From: SAR202 cluster bacterium bin87
GTDB taxonomy: Bacteria; Chloroflexota; Dehalococcoidia; Lucifugimonadales; UBA3495
Direction: 5' to 3'
Assembly (NCBI GenBank): GCA_002238825.1
Contig: MPNC01000002.1
Coordinates: 51,180-115,179, forward strand
Length of the DNA: 64,000 nt
Made by a program: the position numbers and the translations under genes. Below, piece by piece: positions 324 to 61,700 of this stretch; position 1 is the first letter of the stretch; the number at the start of each line of letters is the position of its first letter. The notes under the pieces are model-generated. The model did not search any database. It saw nothing but the letters and a program-made list of their open reading frames with translations, and was not told where the DNA came from.

Positions 324-361
324 GCTCCCGGCATTCCATATAACCGCCCCAGGAGGCACAC

Positions 362-1396: not shown

Positions 1397-1430
1397 GACA
1401 CCCGAGGTCGCTCCGAATCCGCATGGTTCC

Positions 1431-1460
1431 TTGACACTTACGGCACCGGTTGGCTAGGAT
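1431..1460 (+). promoter_or_regulatory. Candidate sigma70-type promoter of the tRNA-Ala/tRNA-Arg pair
   Basis: TTGACA (1431-1436), 18-nt spacer, TAGGAT (1455-1460), about 45 nt upstream of tRNA-Ala. Confidence 0.35.
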
Positions 1461-1506
1461 TGATGCACATTCGGCCGCGCGGTGGTCGCGGGCCGGTGGC
1501 AGAAGT

Positions 1507-1582
1507 GGGGATATAGCTCAACTGGGAGAGCGCGGCGTTCGCAATGCCGAGGTTGCGGGTTCGAGCCCCGCTATCTCCACCA
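1507..1582 (+). tRNA. tRNA-Ala (anticodon CGC), CCA encoded
   Basis: Hand-folded cloverleaf. Acceptor GGGGATA/TATCTCC with the G3:U70 alanine identity pair; D arm GCTC-AACTGGGA-GAGC; anticodon loop TTCGCAA; T arm GCGGG-TTCGAGC-CCCGC; ACCA end. Confidence 0.95.
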
Positions 1583-1592
1583 CTTCGTTTCT

Positions 1593-1669
1593 GCCCCTGT
1601 AGCTCAGTTGGATAGAGCGGCGGCGTCCTAAGTCGCGCGTCGGGGGTTCGAGTCCCTCCAGGGGTACCA
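1593..1669 (+). tRNA. tRNA-Arg (anticodon CCT), CCA encoded
   Basis: Cloverleaf. Acceptor GCCCCTG/CAGGGGT (G1-U72); D arm GCTC-AGTTGGATA-GAGC; anticodon stem GCGGC/GTCGC with loop GTCCTAA; T arm GGGGG-TTCGAGT-CCCTC; ACCA end. Confidence 0.92.
1655..1667 (+). repeat. attL core (13-bp direct repeat, within the 3' end of tRNA-Arg)
   Basis: CCTCCAGGGGTAC is identical to 11998-12010. It covers the T-stem 3' strand, the acceptor 3' strand, the discriminator and the first C of CCA. Confidence 0.8.
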
Positions 1670-1758
1670 TTTCCCACAATCCTAGAGTACAATGTTCCTA
1701 ACTGGCGGCGATAACGCGCCGGTAAAGTTGGAAAAAATTGTTGGCAAGGTGTGGGAAA

Positions 1759-2979: not shown

Positions 2980-3006
2980 ACCTGCTGCCCACATACCAGA
3001 CGGCAA

Positions 3007-3036
3007 ACAACCCCCCGTCGATACACGGGGGGTTGT
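3007..3036 (+). terminator. Intrinsic terminator-like hairpin after the integrase
   Basis: ACAACCCCCCG-tcgataca-CGGGGGGTTGT gives an 11-bp perfect stem, followed by TGTATTA. Confidence 0.6.
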
Positions 3037-3131
3037 TGTATTAGCATAGAGACAAAGAAAACGCCGCCCGGATTGTAGGGACCGAGCGGCAACATCAAAC
3101 CAACGGCGTGCGGGCACGGAGGTTATGGGCG

Positions 3132-4442
3132 ATGCAACGCAATGATAATTCAGCAACCCTAGACAATGCAACCGATCAGGAACTCCGACGGATAGACGAA
3201 TGGGCCGAACGGTGGGGCGCGCTTTCGCCCGATCCCGGCATACCCGATGCCTACCGCCAGTTTCACCAAGCGTGCGCGGACATACGCCGCAATGCCCTTG
3301 ACGATATCGCCGCCGTTGTCGAGCGCGACGAAATTGAGAACCTGAATGCACTACTCGCCGAGGCCGTCCGCGACGGGCTGATAGCTCAGTCTATACCGCA
3401 GCCTAGCGTATGCACCAATAGGCTAAAATCTCCATTAGCGGAAACAATCGGACACGGTATAGACCGGGCCGGGCATTGCCCACCGTTGCCGCCGTCCGGG
3501 TTGGTATGCCCTGACAAGGGTTGGGGCGGCGGGCAAACCCGATGCGCCAATGGGAGGCCGCAAATGTACGCCTTTGACTGCGGCATGGACGATTGCCCGG
3601 TCTGTCTCCCTGAATACCGCCGCGGCAAGGTCTGGCGGTATCGGCACGGCATGGGCAAGGATGAGCAAACCATCATTACCGTTGACTGCCCGGACGCCGC
3701 AACCGCCAGTGACGTGCGCCGGTACTTCACCAACAAATACCGCGTGCCGCACGTTTCGGTTGTGACGCCATATCCCGACGACGACGACGAGCGCGTTACC
3801 GTGACGTGCATTCTCGCCGATGCCTTGACCGATAGCCGTACCGAATTGGCCTATGCGCTTGCCGCCGACCGGTTCCCGTCGCTGCCCTTGTCGATTGACC
3901 AGGGGCGCTATGAACCATCGGAGTTTGCCGAACTGATTATCACGCAACACAAGGTCAATGGCGTGCTCAAACCCGTGTCGTTTGCGAGGTGGGTCAAGGT
4001 GCCGCCAACCGATCCCGATTACCAATTCGCGGACCCTGAAACGCTTACCGTGTTCGTTGAACCGATCAAAGAAAAGCAGCACCATTGCCCCGGCTGCGAT
4101 GCCACCCGCAAGCAATACCCGACGGGCAAGAACCTATCGCCGGCCACCCGCGCAATCAACCGTGAAAAGCGTAACGAGGTGTGGGCGAAACTCTGGTTAG
4201 ACGGCATGGCGATTGACTACCATGATATGACTGACCTGGCGAACGGCGACAAGGAAGCGTACAACCGCATACGGGTTGCATCGCACTACAGCGGGCCGCG
4301 CTCACTGATTGCGGACACGGCGAAAGCGATTGACTTTGACCCGAACTGTGCTAGTCCGCACAACCCACGCGGCGCATATCTCCCGCCAACCGCGTCACTC
4401 GCTATGCTACTGGTAATGCAACACGTCACCATCGGAGGTTAG
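3132..4442 (+). CDS. Hypothetical cysteine-rich protein (two C-x2-C pairs); candidate replication/regulation function, unassigned
   Basis: GGAGG lies 9 nt upstream of the ATG at 3132. Motifs CGMDDCPVCLPEY and HHCPGCDATRK are present. No Walker A motif and no recognisable family. Confidence 0.5.
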   Translation: MQRNDNSATLDNATDQELRRIDEWAERWGALSPDPGIPDAYRQFHQACADIRRNALDDIAAVVERDEIENLNALLAEAVRDGLIAQSIPQPSVCTNRLKSPLAETIGHGIDRAGHCPPLPPSGLVCPDKGWGGGQTRCANGRPQMYAFDCGMDDCPVCLPEYRRGKVWRYRHGMGKDEQTIITVDCPDAATASDVRRYFTNKYRVPHVSVVTPYPDDDDERVTVTCILADALTDSRTELAYALAADRFPSLPLSIDQGRYEPSEFAELIITQHKVNGVLKPVSFARWVKVPPTDPDYQFADPETLTVFVEPIKEKQHHCPGCDATRKQYPTGKNLSPATRAINREKRNEVWAKLWLDGMAIDYHDMTDLANGDKEAYNRIRVASHYSGPRSLIADTAKAIDFDPNCASPHNPRGAYLPPTASLAMLLVMQHVTIGG

Positions 4443-4739: not shown

Positions 4740-6176
4740 ATGGTGAGGCTGCTGCCCTTCCAGCGCGAATTTCTGGCCGCAGTCGAAAATCCGGCCTATG
4801 ACACCGTTGCGCTTTCGGGTCCGCGTGGGCTGAGTAAAACGTTCCTGGCGGCGCAAGTGCTTATTCGCTGCCTTACACCCGGCGATCCGTTGCACCAACC
4901 GGGTATGGAGTACGTGCTAGGCGCTGCGAGCTTGGAGCAGGCGCGTATGGCGTATTCGTTTATTCGTCTGGCGTTGGAAGGCACGGGTGAATATCGCTGG
5001 ATTGACAGCACAACGCGACTCGGCGCAACGCACAAAGAAAGCAACACCAAATTGCGGGCGATATCGTCAAACGGCAAAACGGCGTTCGGTCTAGTCAACG
5101 TTGGCGTGCTGGTGCTGGATGAACCGGGCGGGCTCGAAATTGCGGGCGGGCAGGTTCTCGCCGATGCGATTTTCACGGCGCAAGGCAAGGCAGGGTCAAA
5201 GCTGAAAGTAGTAATGATCGGCACGCTTGGGCCGATGGCGACGTATGCCGGGCATTGGTGGTACGACATGGTATCGGCCGGCACTAAGGGCAGCGTGTGG
5301 GTAAAGCACTTTCAAGGCGACCTGGACTCGTGGGATAACTGGCATACCATCCGCAAGGCTAACCCGTTGGTGAATGTTGACGCGGGCTTTCGCAAGAAAC
5401 TGCTATCGGAGCGCGACGAGGCGCGAAAAGACACGCGGTTGAAAGCGCGCTTTCTTACGTATCGCTTGAACATTCCATCAGGTGACGAGGTTCGCAAGTT
5501 GCTCACCGTTGACGATTACCAGTTGGCGTTGACCCGACCTGTCGGAGAACGTAGCGGCCGGCCGATAGTTGGTGCTGACATGGGCGCGGGGCGGGCGTGG
5601 TCGGCGGCGACGGCGATATACCCGTCCGGGCGCGTTGAATGTATCGCGGTTGCCCCTGGTATCCCGTCAATCTCCGATCAGGAACGGCGCGATCTTGTGC
5701 CGAAGGGTACATATCAACGCCTTGTCGACTCCGGGCGGTTGCTGACTGCCGAAGGCCTACGGGTTCAACCTGCCGCGATGCTGGCGGGTGCTATCCGTTC
5801 GGAGTGGGGCATACCGGCGCAAGTGCTGATAGACCGGTTCCGGTTCAACGAACTGCTAGACGTGGCAGGTGGGTTGCCGGTGGAGGCGCGGGTAACGAGG
5901 TGGAGCGAAAGCAGCGCAGACATTCGCAGTCTGCGGCGCATGGCGGCGGATGGGCCAATGTCGATAGACCCGGCAAGTCGGCTGCTGCTAGAGACATCGT
6001 TGACCGCGACGGATGTTGAAACCGATACCAGCGGCAACCATCGCCTGATAAAGAAGGGTTCGGCCAACACCGGCCGTGACGATACGAGCGCGGCACTGGT
6101 GCTGGCGGCGGGCGCGTGGGATAGGGCGCGCACGGCGGTTGCGCCACGGGCGCGCTTGCGCTCACGGGCGGCTTGA
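4740..6176 (+). CDS. Terminase large subunit
   Basis: LPFQREFL start, Walker A-like SGPRGLSKT, Walker B VLVLDE, and a C-terminal RNaseH-like nuclease part (IVGADMG ... GRDDTSAALVLA). The in-frame ATG at 4740 is preferred over the ORF-track start at 4608. Confidence 0.85.
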   Translation: MVRLLPFQREFLAAVENPAYDTVALSGPRGLSKTFLAAQVLIRCLTPGDPLHQPGMEYVLGAASLEQARMAYSFIRLALEGTGEYRWIDSTTRLGATHKESNTKLRAISSNGKTAFGLVNVGVLVLDEPGGLEIAGGQVLADAIFTAQGKAGSKLKVVMIGTLGPMATYAGHWWYDMVSAGTKGSVWVKHFQGDLDSWDNWHTIRKANPLVNVDAGFRKKLLSERDEARKDTRLKARFLTYRLNIPSGDEVRKLLTVDDYQLALTRPVGERSGRPIVGADMGAGRAWSAATAIYPSGRVECIAVAPGIPSISDQERRDLVPKGTYQRLVDSGRLLTAEGLRVQPAAMLAGAIRSEWGIPAQVLIDRFRFNELLDVAGGLPVEARVTRWSESSADIRSLRRMAADGPMSIDPASRLLLETSLTATDVETDTSGNHRLIKKGSANTGRDDTSAALVLAAGAWDRARTAVAPRARLRSRAA

Positions 6177-6230
6177 ACCGCGAGGGTTGTTGCATTAGCC
6201 TTATTCTTACGTAAGTACGAAGGGGCGATC

Positions 6231-6485
6231 ATGGCGAAAACCAACGCGGAACATCAAGCGGCATGGCGGGCGAAACGGGCGGATGCCTTACGTAAGGCAG
6301 AGGCGAGCAACGTCATCTTACGTAAGGAAGTCAAGCGGTTGCAACGGGAACTGGATTTGACTCAGGATGCGATGATCCGTTGGCGGGATATGTACCGCGC
6401 TGCCACCGGGCAGGTGACGGCGAGATCGCAGCAGGCACAACGGCTAGTCGATTGTCTGTCGTCCATTGCGCACCGGACGTGCTGA
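6231..6485 (+). CDS. Hypothetical coiled-coil protein (84 aa)
   Basis: Heptad-rich, basic N-terminus. Lies between TerL and HNH. No family recognised. Confidence 0.4.
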   Translation: MAKTNAEHQAAWRAKRADALRKAEASNVILRKEVKRLQRELDLTQDAMIRWRDMYRAATGQVTARSQQAQRLVDCLSSIAHRTC

Positions 6486-6512
6486 TATGCCTTTTCGCCC
6501 GTTCAACGCGCC

Positions 6513-6857
6513 GTGGGGCTCCCAGCGCATGAATTGGGGTATTCAGTGAACGGTTGGCGCAAGGGCCTGCGGTTGAACCGGGCGCGGTGGGAACGGGTGC
6601 GCAAGGCGGTGTTTCGCAGGGACGGGTATCTGTGCCGGAACTGTGGCCGAACCGGTCGACTCGAATGCGATCATCGGTTGCCCCTTCACCAATACCCCGA
6701 TCAGGACCCTTACGATATGGCCGGCCTGCAAACCCTTTGCCGCGAATGCCACCGGCGCAAGTCTGACCGCGAATTACGTAAGACACCGGAGGTTGACGGG
6801 CAAAAAGCGTGGGATGCGTTACTCGCCGATTCAGTGTGCACATTGCCGAAAGGGTAG
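6513..6857 (+). CDS. HNH endonuclease
   Basis: CRNCGRTGRLECDHRLPLHQ ... LQTLCRECHRRKS shows the C-x2-C / H-N-H / C-x2-H architecture. Confidence 0.85.
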   Translation: MGLPAHELGYSVNGWRKGLRLNRARWERVRKAVFRRDGYLCRNCGRTGRLECDHRLPLHQYPDQDPYDMAGLQTLCRECHRRKSDRELRKTPEVDGQKAWDALLADSVCTLPKG

Positions 6858-22665: not shown

Positions 22666-23049
22666 TCAAACGGGTTGGAGGCGTTTGAGCATGAGGTTGA
22701 CCATGGCGATATGCACCCACGCCTCGCTGCTCTCGGTGCGTTCCTCATAGTCCTTGCTCAACCGTCGGCATCTGCTCAGCCAGGCCAGGGTGCGTTCCAC
22801 CACCCACCGTCTGGGCAAGGGTTCGAAGTGCTGGCTGTCCGGCTTGCGCCTGACTATGGTCATCATCCAGCCGCCGGTGGCCCAGGCCCACGCCACCAGT
22901 TGGCCAGCGTAGCCAGCATCGGCCCAGATCACCTGCAGTTGTGGGAATCGGCCCAACAGTTTTGCCAACACCAGATTGGCGCCGTCCCGGTCCTGAATGT
23001 TGGCGGCGTGAACCACCACCGCCAGCAGCAACCCCATGGTGTCCACCAC
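22666..23049 (-). CDS. IS5-family transposase orfB (DDE part; probably expressed by -1 frameshift from orfA)
   Basis: The -1 frame reads GYDAGKRVTGRKRHIVVDTMGLLLAVVVHAANIQDRDG...IWADAGYAG...RWVVERTLAWL. A GAAAAAGGGGGC run (23101-23110 on +) sits in the orfA/orfB overlap. Confidence 0.8.
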   Translation of the reverse strand: MVDTMGLLLAVVVHAANIQDRDGANLVLAKLLGRFPQLQVIWADAGYAGQLVAWAWATGGWMMTIVRRKPDSQHFEPLPRRWVVERTLAWLSRCRRLSKDYEERTESSEAWVHIAMVNLMLKRLQPV

Positions 23050-23069
23050 GATGTGCCGCTTGCGTCCCG

Positions 23070-23450
23070 TTACCCTTTTGCCAGCGTCGTAACCTCTGGG
23101 CCCCCTTTTTCCGTGGTCTTCGCCGACTCGCTGTCGATGATGGCTGCGCTGGGCGTAGCCGCTCGACCCGCAGACTCTCGAACCCGCGCCCGCAGGGTCG
23201 ACTCCACACGTTCCCAGGTGCCGTCATCCCGCCAGTTACGGAAGTACCACCACACCGTGCCCCAGGGTGGCAGGTCATGGGGCATCAGGCGCCAGGGTAT
23301 TCCACCCCGGAGCACGTACAGGATGCCGTTGACCACCTCCCGCAGGTCCGTGGTTCTGGGATGGCCCCTTTTGGTGTCAGGTGGCAGCAGGGCCGCCAAC
23401 TCCTCCCATTGGGCATCGGTCAAATCGCTGGGATAAGGTTTTCTACTCAC
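23070..23450 (-). CDS. IS5-family transposase orfA
   Basis: PYPSDLTDAQWEELAALLPP...GHPRTTDLREVVNGILYVLRGGIPWRLMPHDLPPWGTVWWYFRNWRDDGTW is a typical IS5/IS427 N-terminal domain. Confidence 0.85.
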   Translation of the reverse strand: MSRKPYPSDLTDAQWEELAALLPPDTKRGHPRTTDLREVVNGILYVLRGGIPWRLMPHDLPPWGTVWWYFRNWRDDGTWERVESTLRARVRESAGRAATPSAAIIDSESAKTTEKGGPEVTTLAKG

Positions 23451-31040: not shown

Positions 31041-32396
31041 TTACGCAGTAGACAACAACGCGGTCAGTTCGCCCACATCCGACATCTGGTCCAGGCGGCT
31101 GACCGCTTCAACCACACGCTGCACTTTGCCATCGCCCAGGGTATCCCGCGAGAGCAGATCGAACTTGCCCAACAGTTCCTCCCGCCCGGCGGGGTTGGAG
31201 AAGTCTCCGCGCTGAGAGGTGACTTCTGCGTGGCGTATACGGCCGTCGGTGAGCCGCACGGCGACCCGCGCGCACGGGTAGTCGTACCGGCGGAGGTTCA
31301 TCTCCGGGTCGGCGTTCAGCGCAACACGCTTGGCCAGGTTACGGATGTCGGCGTCGTTTACCCGCTCGGGCAAAAACGCGGTCACGTCGGTGCGGCCGTA
31401 GCAGATTGCGGCGGCCACCGCGTAGGGAATCGAGAACTTGGCGGCCAGCATGTTCTCGGGGTGGGGGTCGTCCATGATCCCGGCGATGGGCGGCGCAGTA
31501 ACCGCAATGTTTTTCACGTCTGCTGGGGCGAAAGGCTCTTCGCGCAGGAGGTCCTGCACGGCGTCCAGTACGGGGTGGTTGTACAGGCAGCAGGCGTGCA
31601 GCTTGAAGTAGTTCTGCTGGATGCGCAGACTGCCGCTGGTTCCCAGGCCCTCGGTCACCGCTTCAGGGTCGAAGCCGTCACCGAGGAAAGTGCGGTACAG
31701 ATCAGCCGGCCCGTCGGCGATGGCCGTGTACCCGCACTGGCTGAGATGCGCGGCCATGACGCCCTGGAAACCGGACCGGCCGGGGTAGAGGTTGCGCACG
31801 GTGGCCCCTTCGATACAGGGAGTCCATGTGTTGGCCGGACTCATCGACATCGCCAGGTTCATCGCCTCTCGGGTCTGCGCCGCATCGAAGCCCATCAGTC
31901 GCGCCGTGGCGGCGGCGGTGCCGATGGTACCCCACGTCCCGTGCGAATGCACCTCCGCCTTGACGGTGGTCGCCGTGCCGATGCGCGAGATGACCTCGTA
32001 GCCAACGATAATGCTCGCCAGCACCTCGCTGCCGCTGCGTCCCAGGTCCTCGCCCACGGCGATGGCGCCTGGCGTCACGTGGATGGACGGGTGCCCGCCG
32101 CCCAGGCGGTTGCCCTCATCCATCTCCAGCGACACGCCGGCGGTGGCGTTCACCATGGTTGCCCAGACCGGCTGCACCCGATGGCCGTGACCCAGGATAG
32201 TCGCCTGGCCGGGTCCGCTCATGGTCGCGGCGAGCCCGGCGAAGTTGGCGTTTTCCGACAGGCGGCTGCCGGCCAGCATCGCGCCGATGGTGTCCAGCGC
32301 CACGTCTTTCGCGGCGGCGATGGCGGCGGGGTCAAAGTTCGCCCAACGCGTTTCCGCGACAAACTCGGCAAGTTGGTCCAGATAGTCTTGCTTCAT
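31041..32396 (-). CDS. MmgE/PrpD-family protein (paralogue 3)
   Basis: MKQDYLDQLAEFVAETRWANFDPAAIAAAKDVALDTIGAMLAG... Internal ATG at 32396 chosen. Confidence 0.85.
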   Translation of the reverse strand: MKQDYLDQLAEFVAETRWANFDPAAIAAAKDVALDTIGAMLAGSRLSENANFAGLAATMSGPGQATILGHGHRVQPVWATMVNATAGVSLEMDEGNRLGGGHPSIHVTPGAIAVGEDLGRSGSEVLASIIVGYEVISRIGTATTVKAEVHSHGTWGTIGTAAATARLMGFDAAQTREAMNLAMSMSPANTWTPCIEGATVRNLYPGRSGFQGVMAAHLSQCGYTAIADGPADLYRTFLGDGFDPEAVTEGLGTSGSLRIQQNYFKLHACCLYNHPVLDAVQDLLREEPFAPADVKNIAVTAPPIAGIMDDPHPENMLAAKFSIPYAVAAAICYGRTDVTAFLPERVNDADIRNLAKRVALNADPEMNLRRYDYPCARVAVRLTDGRIRHAEVTSQRGDFSNPAGREELLGKFDLLSRDTLGDGKVQRVVEAVSRLDQMSDVGELTALLSTA

Positions 32397-32419
32397 GATC
32401 CCCTCGGCGATGTCATCGT

Positions 32420-32519
32420 GAGCGCAGCGCGGCAATCTCGTCGGCGGAGTCAGCCGAGTTCACGTCACCGCCGGCAACACAACGAGATTGCTACGTCGCT
32501 ATCGCGTCTCGCAATGACA
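32420..32519. repeat. Conserved imperfect-palindrome intergenic element, copy A
   Basis: 5' arm GAGCGCAGCGCGGCAATCTCGT (32420-32441), 39-nt loop, 3' arm AACGAGATTGCTACGTCGCTATCGCGTCTC (32481-32510). The core GCAATCTCGT/ACGAGATTGC is a 10-bp perfect complement. About 80% identical to copy B in both arms. Confidence 0.75.
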
Positions 32520-32532
32520 GACTCGATACCGC

Positions 32533-33411
32533 CTACCTGGTGAAGAATTCGTGGAGGAGGCGATACGCGTCGTCGGGCAACTCCTCGGCGATGTAGTGGC
32601 CGGAGGGCAGCGACTGGCCTTCCACGTTGTTGGAATAGTTGCTCCACACTCCGAGGACGTCCTGGGTGCGGCCCACGTATCCGCGGTCGCTCCACAACGC
32701 CAGGTGGGGGCAGTTCACCTTGTTCTCGAAATCGGCCTCGTCGTGCTCCAGGTCGATGCTGGCGCCGGCGCGGTAGTCCTCGCACGCCCCGTGGATGGCA
32801 TCGGGGTTGCTGAAGCAGCGCACGTATTCGTCCACCGCCTCCTGCGGGAAGACCTCTTCGGCATTGCGCTCCCGCATGAACCGCGATCGGATGTAGTAGT
32901 CCGGGTCCGCGCCGATCACTCGCTCGGGGAAATCGTAGGGCTGGATCAGGAAGAACCAGTGGTAGGTGTTGGTCGCCATCTCCTTGTTCACGATGCTGAA
33001 CATGTGGCGCGTGGGCACGATGTCCAGCGTCGCCAGCCGCAACACGCGCTGCGGATGGTCCTTGGTCAACCGGTGCGCGACGCGGGCGCCCCGGTCGTGG
33101 CTCCCCAGGAAGAAGGTATCGAACCCCAGGTGGCTCATGGCGTCCACCAGGTCCTGCGCCTGGGCCCGCTTCGAGTGATTGAAGTGGTCGGGGCTGCCCT
33201 GGGGCTTGCCGCTGTCGCCGTAACCGCGCAGGTCCGCCGCGACCACCGTGAAATCTTCCGCCAGCCTCGGGGCGACCTTGTGCCACATGGTGTGCGTCTG
33301 CGGGTAACCGTGCAACAGCAGAAGCGGTGGTCCGCTCCCGCCCTTAACCAGGTTCACCGGCTCGCCGCTGGTCTCCACCAGCATGCGCTCAAATCCCTCG
33401 AAAAAAGCCAT
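32533..33411 (-). CDS. Alpha/beta hydrolase with Asp nucleophile (haloacetate dehalogenase / epoxide hydrolase-like)
   Basis: ATG at 33411 lies 6 nt after AAGGAG. LLLLHGYPQTHTMWHKV, DLRGYGDSGKP and GSHDRGARVAHR (HDRG nucleophile elbow) are present. Confidence 0.8.
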   Translation of the reverse strand: MAFFEGFERMLVETSGEPVNLVKGGSGPPLLLLHGYPQTHTMWHKVAPRLAEDFTVVAADLRGYGDSGKPQGSPDHFNHSKRAQAQDLVDAMSHLGFDTFFLGSHDRGARVAHRLTKDHPQRVLRLATLDIVPTRHMFSIVNKEMATNTYHWFFLIQPYDFPERVIGADPDYYIRSRFMRERNAEEVFPQEAVDEYVRCFSNPDAIHGACEDYRAGASIDLEHDEADFENKVNCPHLALWSDRGYVGRTQDVLGVWSNYSNNVEGQSLPSGHYIAEELPDDAYRLLHEFFTR

Positions 33412-33582
33412 CTTCCGCTCCTTGGCATCTGCTGAGTCAGTGCAAACCGTTTGCCCGCACGCTGCTACATAATGCGGCGGCGCGCCGATGATGTAAATAC
33501 CTTCGTCCGCGCCCTTTGACACCATATTCGCGCCCGTGTACCGTAGGCTTGAACCCGCCGGAACGGCACCTTGAGAGCGCAA

Positions 33583-34755: not shown

Positions 34756-34774
34756 GATGGCTCACTGCCGTTGC

Positions 34775-34858
34775 GAGCGTAGCGGGGCAATCTCGTTGCT
34801 CCTGTAGAGTCTGCCGCAAGAACGAGGTTGCCACGTTGCTGCGCGCCTCTCAACGACA
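34775..34858. repeat. Conserved imperfect-palindrome intergenic element, copy B
   Basis: 5' arm GAGCGTAGCGGGGCAATCTCGT (34775-34796), 24-nt loop, 3' arm AACGAGGTTGCCACGTTGCTGCGCGCCTCTC (34821-34851). The stem GGCAATCTCGTT/AACGAGGTTGCC has one T-G pair, which is tolerated only in + sense RNA. Confidence 0.75.
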
Positions 34859-34886
34859 CGTAGCCGATTGCCAAGGAGGTCGCGTT

Positions 34887-50798: not shown

Positions 50799-51131
50799 TT
50801 ATTTCAAAGGAACAGCCAGTGACACCCGCGGTTCCTCCCCGACGTTGCGTATGATGTGCCCGTGGCCGGTAAGGTCCTCAGCGACCAGCACATCCCCAGG
50901 GCCGAACTGACGCTTGGCGCCGCTGGCCACCTCGATCTCGGCGCCGCCGGACAGGAAAACCACGTACTGATGCCTGGGCGCGGTGTGATAATCCTGCCAC
51001 CATCCGGCCGGACGCTGTCCAACCGTGAAGTCCCCGTCACCGACGTCGTTGGCGATGTCGGCAAACTGGTCGGCTGTCAGATCTTCGAAATGAGATTCGC
51101 CGTCGTCGCCGGCGTAGATACGGACAATCAT
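50799..51131 (-). CDS. Small cupin-domain protein (tandem paralogue 1)
   Basis: ATG at 51131 lies 9 nt after AGGAGG. MIVRIYAGDDGESHFEDL...GPGDVLVAEDLTGHGHIIRNVG. Confidence 0.75.
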   Translation of the reverse strand: MIVRIYAGDDGESHFEDLTADQFADIANDVGDGDFTVGQRPAGWWQDYHTAPRHQYVVFLSGGAEIEVASGAKRQFGPGDVLVAEDLTGHGHIIRNVGEEPRVSLAVPLK

Positions 51132-51159
51132 CGCGTCGTTCCTCCTGCTAACCTCTGAT

Positions 51160-51504
51160 TTAGCCTTCCGCAAGAGGAACAGCCAGGGAGACGCGGAAAT
51201 CGTCCCCGATGCTGCGGGCGATGTGTCCGTGACCGGTCAGGTCCTCGGCTACCAGTACGTCACCCGGGAACATCCGCACCTTGGTGCCGTCCGCAACCTC
51301 GAACTCGGCGATGCCGTTCATGTTGACGACGTACTGCCGGCGCGGCGCGTTGTGGTAGTCGGAGAAGCTGGGGGACTCCCGCCGGTTGACATTGATGTCG
51401 CCCGGGCCCACGTTGTTGGCAATCTCAGCGAACTGGTCCGGTGTAATTTCCTCGAAATGGCTCTCGCCATCGCTGCCAGTGTAAACGCGCACTATCTGTC
51501 CCAT
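51160..51504 (-). CDS. Small cupin-domain protein (tandem paralogue 2)
   Basis: ATG at 51504 lies 8 nt after AGGAGG. MGQIVRVYTGSDGESHFEEI...FPGDVLVAEDLTGHGHIARSIG. The long ORF-track N-terminus was rejected. Confidence 0.75.
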   Translation of the reverse strand: MGQIVRVYTGSDGESHFEEITPDQFAEIANNVGPGDINVNRRESPSFSDYHNAPRRQYVVNMNGIAEFEVADGTKVRMFPGDVLVAEDLTGHGHIARSIGDDFRVSLAVPLAEG

Positions 51505-51545
51505 GGGGGTAACCTCCTGTGTGCTGGGGTGAACGGGCTTTGGGA

Positions 51546-51884
51546 TCAACTGGCCAGGGGTATCACGGCCGTGAGACTGGGAACGTCGCCGATCACCCGG
51601 GTGGTGTGTCCCTGCCCCGTGGTGTCTTCCACCAGTCGCGCATCTCCAGGGCCGTAGCGGAACGTGGTCCCGTCGCCGAGGCCAATCTCGATCTCGCCGC
51701 GAAGGGAGATGATGTACTGTCGTCGGGGCGCCGGGTGCCAGTCGATAAAGTGTCCCGGAGGCCATTCCCGAAAGTTGATCGATTGGGCGGCCTGCGCGTC
51801 GCCCAATTCCGGATGGTCAGCCAGGCTGGTCTCTTCGATATGCGACTGGCCGTCGTCGCCGGCGTAGAGTCGGTAGATCGCCAT
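51546..51884 (-). CDS. Small cupin-domain protein (tandem paralogue 3, most divergent)
   Basis: MAIYRLYAGDDGQSHIEE...GPGDARLVEDTTGQGHTTRVIG. Confidence 0.75.
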   Translation of the reverse strand: MAIYRLYAGDDGQSHIEETSLADHPELGDAQAAQSINFREWPPGHFIDWHPAPRRQYIISLRGEIEIGLGDGTTFRYGPGDARLVEDTTGQGHTTRVIGDVPSLTAVIPLAS

Positions 51885-53100: not shown

Positions 53101-53456
53101 GGGGACGCGTAGGTTCGACAGGAGCGGTTTCTGACGGATTGCAGGCCGAGGTTGCTGCTGCCCTCGTTAAAACAGTGGCGAACAAACAACTGGCGAACGT
53201 GAATTCGCTCTAGCCGCCTAGTAGCGGCTACGTCTGTCACCAGTAAGTCCGGAAACTGGGAAGCGGACGTACAATAATTCCGGGATGCTACCCCAGGGAC
53301 ACCGATACTCGGGGCCATAGATTTTATCGGCTGGCGGTTGGGGCATCCTGTCGGCGGGAGTCCCCAGCAGCGAGACTAAATCGCCGAACACGCTTGTAGC
53401 ATATCCGATTAGGGGAGTTTCTGGACGGGGAGTGCGACTCTCCCCCGTCTCCACCA
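53101..53456 (+). ncRNA. ssrA: tmRNA (SsrA), one-piece, 356 nt including CCA
   Basis: 5' GGGGACGCGTAGGTTCGACAGG pairs with 3' CGTCTCCACCA (G3-U70). T arm GGGGAG-TGCGACT-CTCCCC. Internal tag frame GGC GAA CAA ACA ACT GGC GAA CGT GAA TTC GCT CTA GCC GCC TAG TAG (53177-53224) gives (G)EQTTGEREFALAA followed by a double stop. Confidence 0.92.
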
Positions 53457-54981
53457 TTCCCAGTTAAATGTCCGGTTTTGGCTGATCGCAGCGAAACATC
53501 GTTGCGTTCCGCCATCGCGAGCATGGTCTGGCAGTAGTCCGGTTTTGGGAGAACCCCGACGATCACTCGCTGATCAAGGTCCACGTACACGGCCTCGAGA
53601 AAGGTCCGCAAAATCCGGTTCCGGCGGCTGACGCACGACGAGTGCCATTCTGCGCCAAATTTCGCCAACTGATTGCCCGCATCGGTCGCTTCGTCGATTT
53701 CCGGGATGTGCGCGCCAACCATCTCAGCCTCGGCTCGGTTTTTCGTGACCGTATAGATTTTCCAGTCGATTTCCGCGGTCAAATAGAGGTGCCGGGCCCT
53801 GTCCACCTGTCCTTGAATGGCGTGTCGTTTTTGGATAGCGGCGGTGTGGTCCTGCCCCTTCACGTGGTGTTCGATGATCCAGTCCTCCCGCAGCCGGAAC
53901 CCCTCGAACAACCGCTCCACCTGCTCCTCAATCTGCCACCCCACGAACGCCTTCCCCCGGTGGCGACAGATCACGCTGAGGCCCCGGTACGGGCTCTTGT
54001 AGTACGTCTTGCCGCCCGCACCCTGGGTCTGGGACCACAACTCAGTCCCGCACTCGTGGCACCGCAACAGCCCGGTCAGCAGGTGAGGGTGCTCACTCTT
54101 CACGTTGCCCGATACCGAGCGCCGCGACCGGTTCTTCGCCTTCCGCTCCCGCACCGCCTCGAACAACTCCTCGTCGATCACCCCCTGGTGTCGGCCCGCA
54201 AAGTGCTCCTCCTTGTGCCTCACCTCTCCCAGGTAGAACCGATTCTTCAGCATATCCCGCACGCTGTAGTTGGTGAACCGTCGGCCGTCCCCTTCCACCA
54301 CCTCACCCATGATTACCTGGGGCTTCTTGCTCTTGGTCCGGAACCCCTGCTCGTTCAACCACCCCGCCAGCGTGCTCATCGACTCCACGCCCTTGGCGTA
54401 CCTCTGGAACATCTCCACCACCGCCTGGGCCTTCTCCCTCTCCACGTGGCACCGAGTGTGTCCCTCGTCAATCCCGTAGCACACCGCATCGCACCGCTCG
54501 TATCCGAAGGGCGGCTCCCCGTTGAACATTCCCTGCATAGCGCGCTCTCGCATCCCTTCCTGGTGTGGCCGGACAACGTGTCGGAGAAATACTGCGCAAA
54601 GGCCCCCGGCATGGTCATGAAGAGCCTGCCCTCGGGCGTGGTGTAGTCGATGTCCTGCGTGATGGACACATAGGTCACGTTGTTCTGGGAGAAGATTTGG
54701 AAGGTGTCGAGCATGACGCTGAAGTTCCGCGAAAACCTGTCCAGCGCATGGGTGATCACAACATCGAACACGTCCGACACGGCGTCTGCCAGGATTTGCC
54801 GGAAGGTTGGACGCTTTGCGGTGGATTCCCCCCACGCAGAGCGGCCTTCCTCGTCGTAGGTGCGCACCACTTCCCATCCTTTCTGAGCGCAGAACTCGTA
54901 GAAGGCGCGGCGTTGGGCGTCCAGCGAGTACCCTTCCAGCTGATCCTCGTCGCTAACTCGGAAGTATCCCGCTGCTCTCAT
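53324..54981 (-). pseudogene. Large serine recombinase, interrupted by a 1-nt frameshift; the ORF tail overlaps the tmRNA 3' end
   Basis: The N-terminal resolvase domain (AAGYFRVSDEDQ, ORF 54376..54981) joins the recombinase/zinc-ribbon/coiled-coil part (ORF 53324..54877; PPFGY, LLRCHECG) at TLSGHTRKG|MRERAMQG. One base appears to be missing in a G-run (CCC at 54554-54556 on +). The last ~44 codons are antisense to tmRNA (53327-53456). Confidence 0.85.
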
Positions 54982-58746: not shown

Positions 58747-61700
58747 CTATGGGCCGGATACCGTGAACTCCACGCGGTTGTAGTGCTTTCTGCCATCGCT
58801 GGTGCAGATTGCGTCGGAGGCGGCGCAGTCCGTGGTGGGCGGCAGTACGATGGTGACGTCGGCGTCGGAATCGGGCCTGACGTCGATTACCCAGTTCTGG
58901 TCCGAGCCCTTGGACTTTCGCTTGGCCTTGGTGACGGTGCCGTTGGTCACGTCGAAGGCCTCGTCGCGCAAGGTCCTGAAGCTCAGGTGGGGGTCCTCGG
59001 TGAACGAGAGGCCGAAGGTGATGAGGTTGTCGCCGTCGTGGTTGTCGGGGATGCTGTGGGCGAATGCGGCCGGCGGCGGCGCTGCTCTGGTTGGTAGGCC
59101 GCCGGAGTCCTCGTGGGGGATGATGCTGACCTGCACGGTGTCTCCAGCGTTCCAGTCCATTTCGTCGTCCAGAGCCCACCGGTAGCGCCCCTCGGCGCCG
59201 GTTGACGGCTTGGAGCTCTCGCTGGCCAGGAACTGCTGGTCGCCCACGGTCAGGGTGAAGTCGTTGGGTAGCTCGGAACGCATCATGTTAAGGAACAGGG
59301 CGTCGGCCAGCTGCAGCACGGTCATCACGCGGTACCGGGTTCCGTCAGCGGTGAAGTCGCTGCTGGAGATCGCGCCCATCCGGGTCCAGCGGGAGTAACC
59401 CGATGCTGGTGGGGCGTTGGTATCGTCCTCCACGCCGACCGTGAGGGTGGCTGACCATGCGGGAGACCGGGTTACCGTCACACCGTAAGTCAGCGTGGTG
59501 CTACCGTCCTCGGCCGTGACCGTGGCCTGGATCAGGTTCTCGCCCACATCCAGGTCGACCGTCGCCGCATTTGTCGTGGTCGTGTCGCCGCCCGCGATAA
59601 TGGATACCGTAGCGCTGGGGTGGTTGTGTGTGGCCGTCAATGTCACGGAGCCGACATTGTAACTGACCGACGCCGAGTATTCAGCAGTCGCCGCCGCAAA
59701 AGCCGGCGTAAGGGAGACGGCGCTCCCGTCATCATCCACCAGAGTCAGGGCGCCCAGTGTAGCGTCGCTGCTCGGGTCGTTGTCGATCACGCTGACAGTG
59801 GTGGCAGGGATGTCACCGGCGGTCACAGCATTCGGCAGCATGCCCAATCCGATGACGACGCTCTCGCCCTCATCGTCGATTGCGTCATCCATTGGCCTGA
59901 AGCCCCAGTTCACTGACGTTTCACCCGACTGGAATGTCACGCTCTCCCAAATCCGCGCGATGTCTGCGTCGGTGAATCCGTTTTGTCCCGTCCTGGTGAA
60001 GGGAATAACCACGTCACGCTGTGGGTCTGTGTCCAGGGTAATGGGGACCCGCAGCCCGCCGTCCTCGTTTACGTCGTAAGTTGCTGAGCCAAAACTGACC
60101 TTCACCTGCGGTGGATTCGGGTCGGTTATGGTCACGGTGGTCTCGGTAGTGGCGTCGAGGTCAACGCCGTCCGGCAGAGTTCCGAGTCCAATCAATACGC
60201 TCTCGTTGTCGTCGTACGGACTGTCGGCGGCAGCGTCGAAATTGAACGTCGCCGTCGTATCGCCAGCCGAGATGGTCACGCCCGCGGGGATGCCGGAGTA
60301 GTCTTCGCCGGTTGCGCCGGCCTGATCCACCGTCGTAATGGGGATGGTCACGGCTTCGGTCAAAGCGTTGTCGAGTGAAACGGTCACGACGACCGAGGAG
60401 TCTTCCGACACCGCGTAGCTCGCTGCTCCGAAACCGACCTTGGCCAACCCATCATCGTCGTCGGTGATCGATATGGCGGTTTCGGACGTCGCGCCGGCGC
60501 CGAAGCCGGAGGACATTGTGCCGAAGCCGATCGCTACGCTGTCGTTGTCATCGTCGATGGAGTCCTGCGTCGCGGAGAACGTGAAGGTTTTGGACGTTTC
60601 TCCCGAGTGGAAGGTCAAGCGTGAGGGGACGCCGGAGTAGTCATCGGCGGACGTGTTGCCCTGGGCGGCGGCGGTCAGCGGAACCGAGACCGTCTCACCG
60701 GGGTCTGCGCTCAGCGTAACCCCGACCTCAACCGTGGCGCCCTCGGCAACGGTGTAGGTGGCCTGCGCGAAGTTGACGCTGATCTGTTCAGGGATTTCGT
60801 ACCCGGCGGTGGGCGCTGTTGATAAGGTTGTGCCATCCGCAGTGCAGATGCCGCCAGTGGCGGAGTCGCAGGCCTTGTCCGTCAGCACGGTGAACGTGAT
60901 GTCACCACTTCCGTCGGGGACCAGCACGAATTTGTAGACGTGCGCGGCCGCTCCGGCCTGGCCGTGATAGTCAACACTCTCGATGGTGGCGCCGGTGACG
61001 CTCACCGATGGCGTGTCCTTGGTGAAGTCCACCACCGGCCGGTTGAACGAAAGCGCCACCGCTGGTCGATCCGTTGTGTCGGCGTAGGAGAACGCACTCT
61101 CCTCCGTGAGGAATTCAGCCGCCAGTGGCTCCGGCACATCCGTCAGCGCCACCGGGTCCAGTGAGATGGCGCGTACCTTGTGGGCCTGCCTGCAGCAACT
61201 TCTAATGCGGAGCGCCTTGAGAGACCACTTTTCGACCCCGGTATCCGGATCAACCTGGGTGGCGACTTCGTCGCGCGTGTCCCGACTGGGGATCAGTGAT
61301 CCGTCGCCCCAGGACACCAGCCAATCGCCGTTGCTGAGAAGATCGATGTGCCCGCCCGGGCCGGCCGGAATTGAACGAGTGCCATGCAGGGAGTGGTCGC
61401 GGACGAATACGGCTTCGCCATGTTCTTCGTCGATAGCGTATTCGACGCCCCGGCCGTAGATGTCCTTCTCTCGATTGAGATGCCCGGTCCACGGGTTGAT
61501 CAGGATTGGAGTGCCGTTGTCGAACAGGATGAGGCGGTTGCCTGGCAGCACCTGCGCGGCGTGCTGCCCCCCGAACTCTCCGGCGGGGTCGCCGATGAAG
61601 GTGAACGGCGCCGGACCTCTGCCCTTCGCTTCCCACTGCTCGTCCGTCATTGCGGTGGGGCCCACCCGCCACACGACTTTGTCCTCGTCCGGATCAATGC

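Follow-up and report, generated by a model that had tools for sequence, protein, structure and literature searches.

The window, a 64-kb stretch of DNA, contains two copies of a palindromic element, here called copy A and copy B, and each occupies a short intercistronic spacer between two genes of the same strand. Copy A lies in the spacer that runs from the stop codon (32533) of a - strand alpha/beta hydrolase gene to the ATG (32396) of a - strand PrpD/MmgE gene, 13 nt after the former and 14 nt before the latter. Copy B lies between the stop codon (34755) of a + strand acyl-CoA dehydrogenase gene and the ATG (34878) of a + strand amidohydrolase gene, 10 nt after the stop and 19 nt before the ATG. 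These gene pairs are as the original prediction gave them, and the same-orientation element that it described in two intergenic regions is present in both, on the + strand. The sequences that flank A are unrelated to those that flank B. The limits first reported were too short, as the palindrome runs 9 nt further 5' and has the ends TGTCAT.../...ATGACA. The features are as follows; the limits of A come from a regular-expression parse and covariance model R2 (see below), those of B from model R2.

32411..32519, + strand: copy A, whole element, 109 nt, S>L orientation (short arm 5', long arm 3')
32411..32422, + strand: outer 5' box of A, TGTCATCGTGAG, two substitutions relative to the consensus TGTCATTGCGAG, TGTC tag present
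32423..32430, + strand: short-side middle segment of A, CGCAGCGC
32431..32441, + strand: inner 5' box of A, GGCAATCTCGT, exact consensus
32442..32481, + strand: loop of A, 40 nt
32482..32492, + strand: inner 3' box of A, ACGAGATTGCT, consensus ACGAGATTGCC
32493..32507, + strand: long-side middle segment of A, ACGTCGCTATCGCGT, source of the extra bulged bases, consensus ACGTCGCTGCGCTC
32508..32519, + strand: outer 3' box of A, CTCGCAATGACA, exact consensus
34766..34858, + strand: copy B, whole element, 93 nt, S>L orientation
34766..34777, + strand: outer 5' box of B, TGCCGTTGCGAG, two substitutions, tag degraded to TGCC
34778..34785, + strand: short-side middle segment of B, CGTAGCGG
34786..34796, + strand: inner 5' box of B, GGCAATCTCGT, exact consensus
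34797..34821, + strand: loop of B, 25 nt
34822..34832, + strand: inner 3' box of B, ACGAGGTTGCC, one substitution, giving a U-G wobble on the + strand
34833..34846, + strand: long-side middle segment of B, ACGTTGCTGCGCGC
34847..34858, + strand: outer 3' box of B, CTCTCAACGACA, two substitutions

Both copies follow one plan, in which TGTCATTGCGAG is followed by the short side, GGCAATCTCGT, the loop, ACGAGATTGCC, the long side with its two 3-nt bulges, and finally CTCGCAATGACA. The core GGCAATCTCGT is exact in A and B, its complement carries one mismatch in each. Copy A retains the tags TGTC and GACA, one tag of copy B is TGCC. Over 31 nt the 5' arms have 81% identity, and 30 of 38 aligned positions agree in the 3' arms. 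The arms are complementary with bulges on the 3' arm, as had been described, and each copy folds as a long imperfect hairpin, with predicted energies of -39 to -42 kcal/mol.

The loops are one nucleotide longer in each copy than the 39 and 24 nt first counted. They had also been called unrelated, a statement that needs qualifying because both loop lengths are on or next to modes of the repeat family described below, two of its three. The loop of A is one nucleotide below the large loop-size mode, and it is only weakly related to other loops of its size (alignment score 13, shuffle maximum 8). The loop of B is on the small mode, and no significant similarity to other family loops was found for it. 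Counted between the inner cores the loops measure 42 nt in A (family modes 43 and 42) and 27 nt in B (mode 27).

The only ortholog of copy A, in OZ247430.1, differs from it at 3 of 109 positions, and A together with its entire spacer is about 97% identical there; third codon positions of the flanking genes differ at about 19%. This low divergence relative to third codon positions is more in keeping with constraint on the element than with a passive relic. PrpD homologues from metagenomes (30–71% identical) gave no further ortholog and no empty site for comparison, the hydrolase gene does not adjoin them and no element is present in the 298 kb concerned. The contrast between 97% conservation in copy A and about 80% at synonymous sites is a possible cue for exaptation of this copy.

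A repeat family dispersed across phyla

The family to which A and B belong is a palindromic DNA repeat of about 100 bp that is present in many copies in several phyla. A covariance model built from A and B, a check that had been proposed with the original prediction, gave 118 matches in further Dehalococcoidia loci, counting both strands, and the non-orthologous Dehalococcoidia copies score 60–80 bits on their better strand. Model R2 was built from 31 copies of other genomes with the window left out. It finds copy A with 74.6 bits (E 8e-18) and copy B with 75.5 bits (E 4e-18) at exactly the limits listed above, and nothing else in the window better than E 0.01. With one genome per species scanned, at least 120 loci are found among the matches listed. 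Among the same matches, two closed Dehalococcoidia chromosomes contribute at least 12 loci each, and Mucilaginibacter isolates contribute many. Copies confirmed by the model are also found in about eight further lineages, which include Alphaproteobacteria, Nitrospirota, Zixibacteria, Sulfuricella, a 'Deltaproteobacteria' metagenome-assembled genome (MAG), Phycisphaerae, Campylobacter, and Komeilibacteria and Brocadiia MAGs. The arms are near-identical across phyla, and between Chloroflexota (Dehalococcoidia) and Bacteroidota (Mucilaginibacter) they are almost the same.

The architecture of the copies follows an arm rule, in which one short arm (9-nt middle) pairs with one long arm (middle of about 15 nt). 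Copies A and B conform to this rule, with middle segments that the parse for the rule gives as 9/16 nt in A and 9/15 nt in B. Most parsed family copies consist of an obligate short and long pair around a loop of 14–44 nt, with optional nested hairpin modules, and the loop lengths of the family fall into three modes. The consensus tag is TGTC, several copies have CGTC. The outer boxes pair as an 8-bp stem, ATTGCGAG/CTCGCAAT, that spans the whole element, and the tail after GCAAT is CTCG(T), which is paired with the partner arm. A single arm contains a 5-bp stem with 12–18 nt between the stem halves and the CTCG tail; single arms fold no better than shuffled sequences (-3.5 and -4.9 kcal/mol, z +0.3 to +0.5). 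The recurrent neighbours AAGTGGGTACGCGTGAG and ACCGAAAGGCCCTG are offset outer modules.

Orthologous sites may be empty, filled or differently filled, and short and long arms have been exchanged around a homologous loop. No direct repeat is seen in two comparisons of filled with empty sites, where the flanks have diverged, and no clean target-site signature was recovered. The immediate flanks are not inverted repeats of each other, as in Dehalococcoidia they match at 2.24 of 8 positions compared with 2.30 for shuffled partners. A phage vehicle was looked for in 2.9 million viral contigs with zero matches, unannotated 'bacteriophage sp.' contigs contain partial arm matches only. The one plasmid record that carries the family is a 1.8-Mb Halomonas replicon.

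The window holds only these two copies, separated by 2.3 kb and equally oriented, which is what a local segmental duplication would give, and a palindrome arisen by chance or a coding-sequence remnant common to both could also be imagined. Such an origin has practically no probability left. More than 100 copies with the same arms are found at unrelated loci and in different phyla, a model made from the family only matches both A and B with E of about 1e-17, and both copies are intergenic with unrelated flanks. The family-wide copies and the matches of R2 refute all three variants. The many dispersed copies thus remove the outcome that had been named as fatal to the original prediction, a local duplication without further copies.

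Repeated DNA or structured RNA

The original prediction likened the element to a repeat of REP/BIME or MITE type, or to a structured terminator or RNA-stability element. The REP/BIME-like reading is borne out, as the family is palindromic, intergenic, dispersed irrespective of orientation and present in many copies per genome. The terminator or RNA-stability reading is not supported by covariation, orientation bias relative to transcription, U-tracts or Rfam families. The family acts as repeated DNA, not as structured RNA. Stem pairs are 95% formed across the 31 copies, and the covariation score (0.051) is that of shuffles (0.050), so the compensatory substitutions that had been suggested as a check are absent from these copies beyond the shuffled level. 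Both strands of the elements fold equally well. In same-strand contexts the orientation relative to transcription is mixed, 28 versus 17, and spacers between divergent genes are also occupied. A replication-strand bias of the kind seen for IS200/IS605 or attC was likewise rejected, as orientations are mixed along four closed chromosomes without a replichore pattern.

Neither A nor B matched any Rfam family, whether at the gathering threshold or with E relaxed to 10, and intact copies from other loci gave only a sub-threshold chance match to an SAH family (E 0.58). Neither A nor B has a terminator-like site when searched for intrinsic terminators, and none of 70 Dehalococcoidia copies has a T-rich flank. 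T-rich 3' flanks are present in 27 of 37 Mucilaginibacter copies.

It is unlikely that A and B are cis-acting RNA hairpins selected in polycistronic mRNA, as a barrier to 3' exonucleases, an attenuator or a processing site, with their repetitiveness being secondary. The short same-strand spacers in which they lie and their stable predicted hairpins would suit such a role, and all five of the A/B differences that affect only one side of the stem leave G-U pairs in place on the + strand. In other bacteria REP-type repeats are known to have such roles, as discussed in PMC3733652, and the close identity of copy A and its spacer to the OZ247430.1 ortholog, set against the divergence of third codon positions, would also be expected. 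Against this, the 31 copies lack covariation and their two variable stem positions are unpaired in 12/31 and 9/31 of them. The elements are found in both orientations and between divergent genes, and copy A pairs better on the antisense strand. The fold z-scores of A and B are only about -1.9, there is neither a U-tract nor a terminator call, and no Rfam family matches even the intact copies.

The GIY-YIG partner and related repeat systems

In copy-rich genomes the family clusters around and brackets a gene for a single-domain GIY-YIG protein of about 100 amino acids. GIY-YIG open reading frames (ORFs) adjoin elements at three of the loci, L080, L053 and L031 (Pfam PF01541, E 1e-13 to 1e-16). 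Five loci (L163–L167, 35 kb in total) were fetched by protein identity alone, and these contain 16 elements. An element lies at most 135 nt from the GIY-YIG gene in 5/5 of them and elements lie on both sides of it in 3/5, these loci being partly syntenic and therefore not five independent observations. At a related variant locus, L171, the GIY-YIG gene is in the loop, between two-tier inverted arms. The partner gene encodes a lone GIY-YIG domain of about 94–100 amino acids with the spacing Y10, Y21 and E69. The proteins are 54–56% identical to Bradyrhizobium GIY-YIG proteins and have weak PDB matches to UPF0213 proteins. A Bradyrhizobium homologue (P0107, locus L168, 56% identity) is itself flanked by CGTC-type CGTCATTCC...GGAATCTCG dimers of the same plan. 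No small GIY-YIG nuclease gene was found in the 64-kb window by tblastn.

In 2025 tiny GIY-YIG single-strand nucleases (Ssn) were shown to be the partner of such repeats in Neisseria and some Proteobacteria (PMC11893778). The present family resembles the Ssn system in several respects. Its repeats are intergenic and multi-copy, have the head (C/T)GTCAT, a pairing that begins with AT and ends with AT, and a following C, and they are spread across phyla. Elsewhere in the family, though not in the window, they flank a lone GIY-YIG domain gene of the size given above, often on both sides, and the residues Y10, Y21 and E69 of its product are close to Y6, Y17 and E64 of SsnA. The protein is a putative member of the Ssn family, judged from its size, its one domain, the spacing of its motif residues and the arrangement of gene and repeats. 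The cognate hairpin repeats of the Ssn nucleases are known as NTS or Ssn-related motifs (SRMs). The search string published for them, HGTCWYN(0-2)YYVSBRHN(0-5)WNVSBRGN(0-2)RNCYNB (PMC11893778), is matched exactly neither by the consensus arms nor by any sequence of the window, and this motif therefore misses the family. The short arm is one substitution away from it (7 of 5000 shuffles are equally good), the long arm more than three; the left arm of A needs one substitution and that of B needs three. The family also differs in build. SRMs are defined by a compact hairpin, whereas the single arm here has a 5-bp stem and is not self-folding, and most copies are the obligate short and long pair with its 14–44-nt loop and optional nested modules. 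The main text of PMC11893778 does not mention Chloroflexota or Bacteroidota.

A second related group is the CGTC REP superfamily, which includes dRS3 of Neisseria and RPE-4 and RPE-6 of Rickettsia (Di Nocera, De Gregorio, Rocco 2013; PMC3733652). According to the text of that paper, its units have stems of 8–9 bp, loops of 4–5 nt and a CCA tail, and the terminal tag CGTC is 'changed to TGTC in many repeats', with CCTC as a further variant. The family shares this tag, a stem that starts with A-T then T-A, inverted dimers (often heterodimers) with spacers of 20–100 bp, an intergenic position near gene ends, the lack of a dedicated transposase and occasional nesting in other palindromes. It has a high copy number, an intergenic location, inverted dimers, variable spacers and, at the loci checked, no transposase, in common with the superfamily. 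A Rhodopseudomonas palustris CGTC-3 unit, which we reconstructed by back-translating the peptide VIAGLDPAIH from the part of the supplement that gives it, shares CGTCATTGC...GGCAATC with the family arm and folds at -10.9 kcal/mol (z -4.8). Unlike CGTC REPs, the family has arms with 5-bp stems whose halves are 12–18 nt apart, and its tail is CTCG instead of CCA; it lacks the compact single-unit hairpin, and its 8-bp stem spans the whole element. The text and part of the supplements of PMC3733652 report no CGTC repeats from Chloroflexi and do not contain the sequence TGTCATTGCGAG / GGCAATCTCGT. A literature search by repeat sequence or encoded peptide returned nothing relevant. The original prediction knew of no such family, a view that has to be revised, as in tag and plan the arms agree both with the CGTC/TGTC-tagged REP superfamily (PMC3733652) and with Ssn-related motifs (PMC11893778).

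The likeness to the BIMEs and RAYT-associated REPINs of Proteobacteria lies in two inverted REP unit types that differ by a bulge, variable spacer motifs, a long imperfect hairpin, a mosaic, intergenic and high-copy distribution and a partner gene flanked by its own repeats (the 'REPtron' logic). REPIN/RAYT pairs are generally lineage-specific, whereas the arms of this family are near-identical in different phyla. Its partner is a GIY-YIG nuclease and not a Y1/HUH transposase, it is without a GTAG tag and its arms are not self-folding. MITEs such as Correia, ERIC and Nezha are also non-coding, dispersed elements of about 100 bp with long terminal inverted repeats and are polymorphic between relatives. 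In contrast to these, no target-site duplication was seen at the sites compared and no parent insertion sequence that bears a transposase was found among the fetched loci, and the autonomous-looking form of the family bears the GIY-YIG nuclease between the arms. Integron attC sites, which have bulges on one arm and a variable loop, were rejected as no RYYYAAC / GTTRRRY core sites were seen at the ends by inspection; the window encodes a single tyrosine integrase, which is of phage type and lies 30 kb away.

That the elements are classical MITEs or REPINs, moved in trans either by a DDE transposase with the same terminal arms or by a RAYT (Y1/HUH), is improbable in our view. The long inverted arms with TGT...ACA termini, the presence/absence polymorphism and the high copy number would all be expected of such elements, the window holds DDE transposase genes or fragments, and an IS110 gene adjoins the GIY-YIG gene in L166. 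The original prediction had suggested a search for a RAYT, but Y1_Tnp has no match among 54 window ORFs (all but one at least 124 amino acids long), and the recurrent partner elsewhere is the GIY-YIG nuclease, the only gene repeatedly bracketed by arms. No RAYT or DDE parent was found in the window or next to solo arms, where the neighbouring ORFs are ordinary genes with no transposase at those checked, and no transposase-bearing parent is present in about 0.95 Mb of fetched loci from family-carrying genomes. Polymorphic sites, with their diverged flanks, show no target-site duplication, there is no GTAG tag, and the arms are not palindromic alone, unlike RAYT substrates. CGTC-type REPs have themselves been reported without an associated transposase in the text of PMC3733652.

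Proposed nature and behaviour of the repeats

We consider it likely that A and B are non-autonomous, degenerate members of a dispersed family of palindromic DNA repeats, each about 90–110 bp long and made of two tail-to-tail TGTC-tagged REP-like units. The family falls within an established class of selfish or domesticated repeats and is not a new RNA. By analogy with Ssn, when the DNA is single-stranded, in replication, in repair or in incoming DNA, a cognate GIY-YIG nuclease would recognise an arm, probably by its TGTCAT head, by the pairing of ATTGC...GCAAT and by the C after it. The nuclease would nick nearby, and nicking would in turn drive or modulate recombination and with it the spread and turnover of copies. 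Copies A and B themselves are probably passive relics that fill two intercistronic spacers, since no nuclease gene is present in the window and both tags of B and one arm of A are mutated. Once transcribed into mRNA they would fold into hairpins of about -40 kcal/mol, and any effect of these would be a by-product or a secondary exaptation.

A bolder proposal can be made only tentatively. The elements of about 100 bp may be non-autonomous derivatives of a self-propagating 'hairpin element' that carries an Ssn-type GIY-YIG nuclease as its only gene, in the loop, as in L171. Such an element would have spread through two phyla at the least, perhaps ten, with nearly unchanged arms. It would evolve by arm swaps and by taking up small hairpin modules, rather than by point mutation, with copies such as A being exapted.

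CGTC-type palindromic repeats have long been described as being without a dedicated enzyme. What is new here is the partnership of gene and repeat in Chloroflexota (Dehalococcoidia) and Bacteroidota (Mucilaginibacter), with a differently built repeat, and one related locus in which the nuclease gene is inside the repeat. The family offers candidate sequence-specific single-strand DNA nucleases together with their candidate substrates, and it makes testable the spread of such repeats as nuclease-driven mobile elements. For the window the outcome is two old repeat copies in operon spacers and no new regulatory RNA. The family also accounts for spurious small ORFs and strong hairpins that are met when metagenome-assembled genomes are annotated.

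Copies A and B and the family to which they belong

Both of the look-alike sequences named in the original prediction are present in the window as described. Their sites had been placed correctly and their ends drawn slightly short, the palindrome spanning TGTCAT... to ...ATGACA in each copy. The gene context that had been given is confirmed by Pfam.

Elements A and B and their neighbouring genes in the window (gene assignments from Pfam)
32411-32519 (109 nt), + strand: copy A, TGTCAT...ATGACA palindrome, R2 match
34766-34858 (93 nt), + strand: copy B, TGTCAT...ATGACA palindrome, R2 match
stop at 32533, - strand: alpha/beta hydrolase on one side of A
ATG at 32396, - strand: MmgE/PrpD gene on the other side of A, GAGGGG before the ATG
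stop at 34755, + strand: acyl-CoA dehydrogenase upstream of B
ATG at 34878, + strand: amidohydrolase downstream of B, AAGGAGG before the ATG

Each copy almost fills the short spacer of a same-strand gene pair, A being antisense to its neighbours and B sense. The 5' arms of the two are 81% identical over 31 nt, the 3' arms at 30 of 38 positions (alignment A2). Both copies contain GGCAATCTCGT unchanged, and each has the complement of it with one mismatch. Both fold as long imperfect hairpins (A -41.8, B -39 kcal/mol on the + strand, z about -1.9) with loops of 40 nt in A and 25 nt in B. RNAalifold finds 22 pairs common to the two, with five one-sided changes, all retaining G-U on the + strand.

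The pattern GGCAATCTCGT-N14-44-ACGAGRTTGC, searched in one genome per species, occurs at 120 or more loci, including at least 12 from each of the closed Dehalococcoidia chromosomes OZ253540.1 and OZ244795.1. The others lie in further closed Dehalococcoidia chromosomes, many Mucilaginibacter isolates and scattered other taxa. A covariance model made from A and B has 118 matches in Dehalococcoidia loci (both strands counted). R2, a model made from 31 copies of other genomes with the window left out, matches the window only at A (74.6 bits, E 8e-18) and B (75.5 bits, E 4e-18); the E-values are rough, the calibration having been shortened. A local pair was rejected as an explanation, A and B being members of a large dispersed family.

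R2 also confirmed copies in an Alphaproteobacteria MAG (89 bits), Mucilaginibacter (82), Nitrospirota (78), Zixibacteria (76), Sulfuricella (70), a 'Deltaproteobacteria' MAG (65), Phycisphaerae (54), Campylobacter sp. (51), Komeilibacteria (43) and Brocadiia (37); copies on single contigs may reflect MAG contamination. The family is secure in at least two phyla because closed Dehalococcoidia chromosomes and Mucilaginibacter isolates carry it. No copy occurs in 2.9 million viral contigs, and plasmids are essentially free of the family.

The full plan, read from the matches and their flanks, is TGTCATTGCGAG / CG[N]AGCG[T/C] / GGCAATCTCGT / loop / ACGAGATTGCC / ACGTCGCT[N]CGCTC / CTCGCAATGACA. 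The middle segment is 9 nt in the short arm and 15 nt in the long arm, where it may be lengthened by an inserted small hairpin module; only 2 of 125 parsed copies have two short sides. The consensus folds as DNA at -42.6 kcal/mol (z -9.6), the long arm forming two 3-nt bulges. Loop lengths between the inner cores have modes of 43, 27 and 30 nt, the values for A and B being 42 and 27. Both window copies are degenerate relative to this consensus: in A the outer 5' box carries two substitutions and the long side has diverged, and in B both outer boxes and one inner box carry substitutions.

Solo arms are also found, as are tandem arrays of half-units, in which TGTCATTGCGAG is joined to a fixed segment of 12-19 nt in up to about 13 copies (75-nt units in L053; L-numbers denote fetched loci of other genomes). 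These arrays adjoin the GIY-YIG gene described below or full elements, and are superficially CRISPR-like, but their 'spacers' are identical. Many Dehalococcoidia copies (e.g. in L056, L025, L085, L024 and L038) have a further, offset inverted-repeat layer, made of the recurrent outer modules AAGTGGGTACGCGTGAG and, at an 8-10-nt offset on one side, ACCGAAAGGCCCTG; these modules are not found at A or B.

Half-unit arrays
L163: about 3670-3940
L045: 7902-8000
L080: 5235-5300
L053: 5624-5954

Pairing, orientation and turnover

A structured terminator or RNA element had been offered as one reading of the palindrome, and pairing is indeed high, with 95.4% of 31 pairs formed in the 31-copy alignment. 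The cause is sequence conservation in both arms. The proposed test for compensatory substitutions was run on these copies and gave a covariation score of 0.051, against 0.050 +/- 0.004 in shuffles (reached by 197 of 500); of the 31 copies, 12 and 9 lack pairing at the two stem positions that vary. The two strands fold equally well (mean -54.10 vs -54.12 kcal/mol over 122 copies). By approximate counts from a home-made ORF caller, same-strand genes flank 45 copies, convergent genes 16 and divergent genes 13, and transcripts in same-strand contexts would run long-to-short in 28 cases and short-to-long in 17. Four closed chromosomes show no replichore pattern. No terminator-like tail is present at A or B or in 70 Dehalococcoidia copies; Mucilaginibacter copies, unlike these, often lie between A-rich and T-rich flanks. 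Neither the window copies nor intact copies match Rfam 15. The element does not carry the marks of selection as an RNA, and neither the RNA nor the terminator reading is supported.

The elements turn over. One orthologous spacer, bounded by the same two genes, is empty in OZ253540.1, holds an unrelated palindromic repeat in OZ244795.1 and a TGTC element in OY762251.1. At a second site one genome has the element and another lacks it, and at a third, three genomes each have an element with different inserted modules. No target-site duplication is visible at the polymorphic sites, where the flanks have diverged. At a fourth site (L065 7456-7549 vs L100 1789-1882) the flanks and loop are homologous and the short and long arms have swapped sides, which implies that the palindrome underwent template switching or conversion of its arms. 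The arms thus change through exchange or conversion between copies without the loop changing along with them, which accounts for stems that pair well yet lack covariation.

A second widespread palindromic repeat, ...GAGCCTGTCGAAGG... / ...CCTTCGACAGGCTC..., was seen in L099 (about 6700-6830, reverse strand). There it fills the orthologue of a spacer that in another genome holds the TGTC element, with a GGACGAGGAG direct repeat on its flanks. Repeats of this type are also found as inserts in L006, L076, L081, L108 and L113, and some TGTC elements have one as a module in the long arm.

The GIY-YIG gene and the relation to known repeats

The original prediction had looked to a RAYT, a REP-associated Y1 transposase. 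This expectation is not supported: no Y1 transposase was found among the 54 window ORFs scanned. Four small GIY-YIG ORFs were recognised in element-centred loci by motif scan and tblastn, and the three intact ones match PF01541 (E 1e-13 to 1e-16).

GIY-YIG ORFs in element-centred loci
L080, Chloroflexi MAG, 5305-5613: between elements 5125-5219 and 5692-5786
L053, Mucilaginibacter, 6130-6423: between elements 5954-6058 and 6498-6591
L031, Mucilaginibacter, 959-1276: adjoins element 1372-1499
L088, Mucilaginibacter: frameshifted copy, no adjacent element

Chloroflexi and Mucilaginibacter versions of the protein share 44% identity. The L080 protein has 176 matches, all of them lone GIY-YIG domains of 89-133 aa, several on contigs of chromosome size (3.4-4.4 Mb). 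Five loci were fetched by protein identity alone, which avoids the bias of loci selected by element. In these R2 finds 16 distinct elements in 35 kb, with an element no more than 135 nt from the GIY-YIG gene in all five and on both sides in three; the loci are partly syntenic and are not five independent observations. About 30 nt before the start codon they have a solo short arm and half-unit arrays.

Variant families show similar arrangements. In L171 the gene (2001-2339) is enclosed by two tiers of inverted arms, an outer TGTCATCCTGAGGAG / CTCCTCAGGATGACA and an inner ...GGATCTGCGGTTG / CAACCGCAGATCC..., and therefore occupies the loop. A Bradyrhizobium homologue (L168, 56% identity) is flanked by CGTCATTCC...GGAATCTCG / AGATTCC...GGAATGACA dimers, which share the plan of the present family but have arms that are true hairpins. 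In Patescibacteria (L169, L170) the homologue has TGTCATTCC... units at each end. Counting these variants, the loci fetched by protein identity and L080, L053 and L031, the physical association of gene and repeat recurs in five or more separate contexts. By tblastn, no homologue of the protein is encoded in the window. In three closed Dehalococcoidia chromosomes (L163, L165, L166, positions 1-3600) the gene adjoins phage portal and N6/N4 DNA methyltransferase genes, and in L166 an IS110 transposase lies directly upstream.

Di Nocera et al. (2013) defined a REP superfamily by a CGTC tag, 'changed to TGTC ... in many repeats', which includes Neisseria dRS3 and Rickettsia RPE-4 and RPE-6 and has no dedicated transposase. 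Its units have 8-9-bp stems starting with A-T pairs, 4-5-nt loops and a CCA tail, and frequently form inverted dimers, often heterodimers, with 20-100-bp spacers (PMC3733652). The supplement peptide VIAGLDPAIH belongs to R. palustris CGTC-3 (PMC3733652); our own back-translation reconstructs this as CGTCATTGCCGGGCTTGACCCGGCAATCCA, which has (C/T)GTCATTGC...GGCAATC in common with the arm of the present family. The reconstructed unit folds (z -4.8), whereas single arms of the present family do not (z +0.3 to +0.5) and therefore lack the stem, loop and tail of CGTC REPs.

The partner of dRS3-type repeats was identified in 2025 as the Ssn proteins, single-domain GIY-YIG proteins of about 94 aa (cd10448) that bind and cut the repeat solely as single-stranded DNA; their genes are flanked by repeats ('NTS-ssnA-NTS'), and in N. 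meningitidis Ssn modulates integration of transforming DNA (PMC11893778). The published degenerate string of the Ssn-related motif (PMC11893778) has no match in the consensus arms or anywhere in the window. The short arm is exactly one substitution from it (equalled by 7 of 5000 shuffles) and the long arm more than three.

The REP/BIME-like reading of the original prediction was right: the element is a variant of the CGTC/TGTC-tagged REPs and Ssn-related repeats. On the model of Ssn, the GIY-YIG nuclease would recognise one arm in single-stranded DNA, the likely determinants being TGTCAT, the ATTGC/GCAAT pairing and the C after it, the corresponding positions of which matter for SsnA (PMC11893778). 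The putative nuclease would nick nearby, and the nick could promote or modulate recombination as well as copy gain, loss and exchange. The family extends the nuclease-repeat partnership to Chloroflexota and Bacteroidota, in a form that the published motif misses, and a gene-in-loop arrangement is included.

Copy A and other features of the window

Both tags are mutated in B and A retains one intact arm. The most economical reading is that both are old copies, inactivated in part, whose presence in operon spacers is tolerated. The sole ortholog of A is in OZ247430.1 (L003), where the PrpD-element-hydrolase block is 91% identical over 2.3 kb (window 31161-33499, L003 2583-4921); beyond it the two are not syntenic on either side. 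Between the two genomes, 3 of 109 positions differ in the element and 4 of 136 in the spacer as a whole (about 97% identical), compared with 142 of about 733 third codon positions (19%) in the two flanking genes. In this one pair A, its private loop included (2 differences in 40 nt), is clearly conserved relative to the synonymous-site rate; as a 109-nt window it is not an outlier, 19% of windows being at least as similar. The conservation of this pair could reflect conversion, or constraint on a hairpin that ends 8 nt from the PrpD ribosome-binding site, and leaves room for a secondary role. Marine-metagenome PrpD homologues (30-71% identity, 42 loci, 298 kb) have neither the hydrolase neighbour nor the element.

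The catabolic genes around A and B form a dense run of paralogs (16495-50749), comprising three MmgE/PrpD proteins, two luciferase-like monooxygenases, two alpha/beta hydrolases, two acyl-CoA dehydrogenases, amidohydrolases, an enolase-superfamily protein, an amidase, a CoA-transferase III and MFS transporters. Such a repertoire is typical of SAR202-type Dehalococcoidia. An IS4/IS5-type transposase in two ORFs (DUF4096 and DDE_Tnp_1; 22666-23450, - strand) lies amid these genes.

The region from 1507 to about 15000 has the look of an island that inserted at a tRNA gene. Two tRNA genes (1507-1666) are directly followed by a tyrosine integrase with Arm-binding, central and catalytic domains (1738-2979), several large ORFs without a Pfam match and transposase fragments (Mutator family, 12147-12569; DDE_5, 13081-13563). 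A second integrated element is probably represented by a large serine recombinase at ssrA: the 3' part of the tmRNA gene (53101-53456, 124 bits) is overlapped by its ORF (53324-54877, - strand, a longest-ORF call). Three sets of in-frame tandem DNA repeats lie within coding regions.

In-frame tandem repeats in the window
382-780: 171-nt period, NHL-repeat protein
50808-51873: period of about 367-383 nt
59841-60564: 339-nt period, 1642-aa Calx-beta/cadherin/arylsulfotransferase-domain protein
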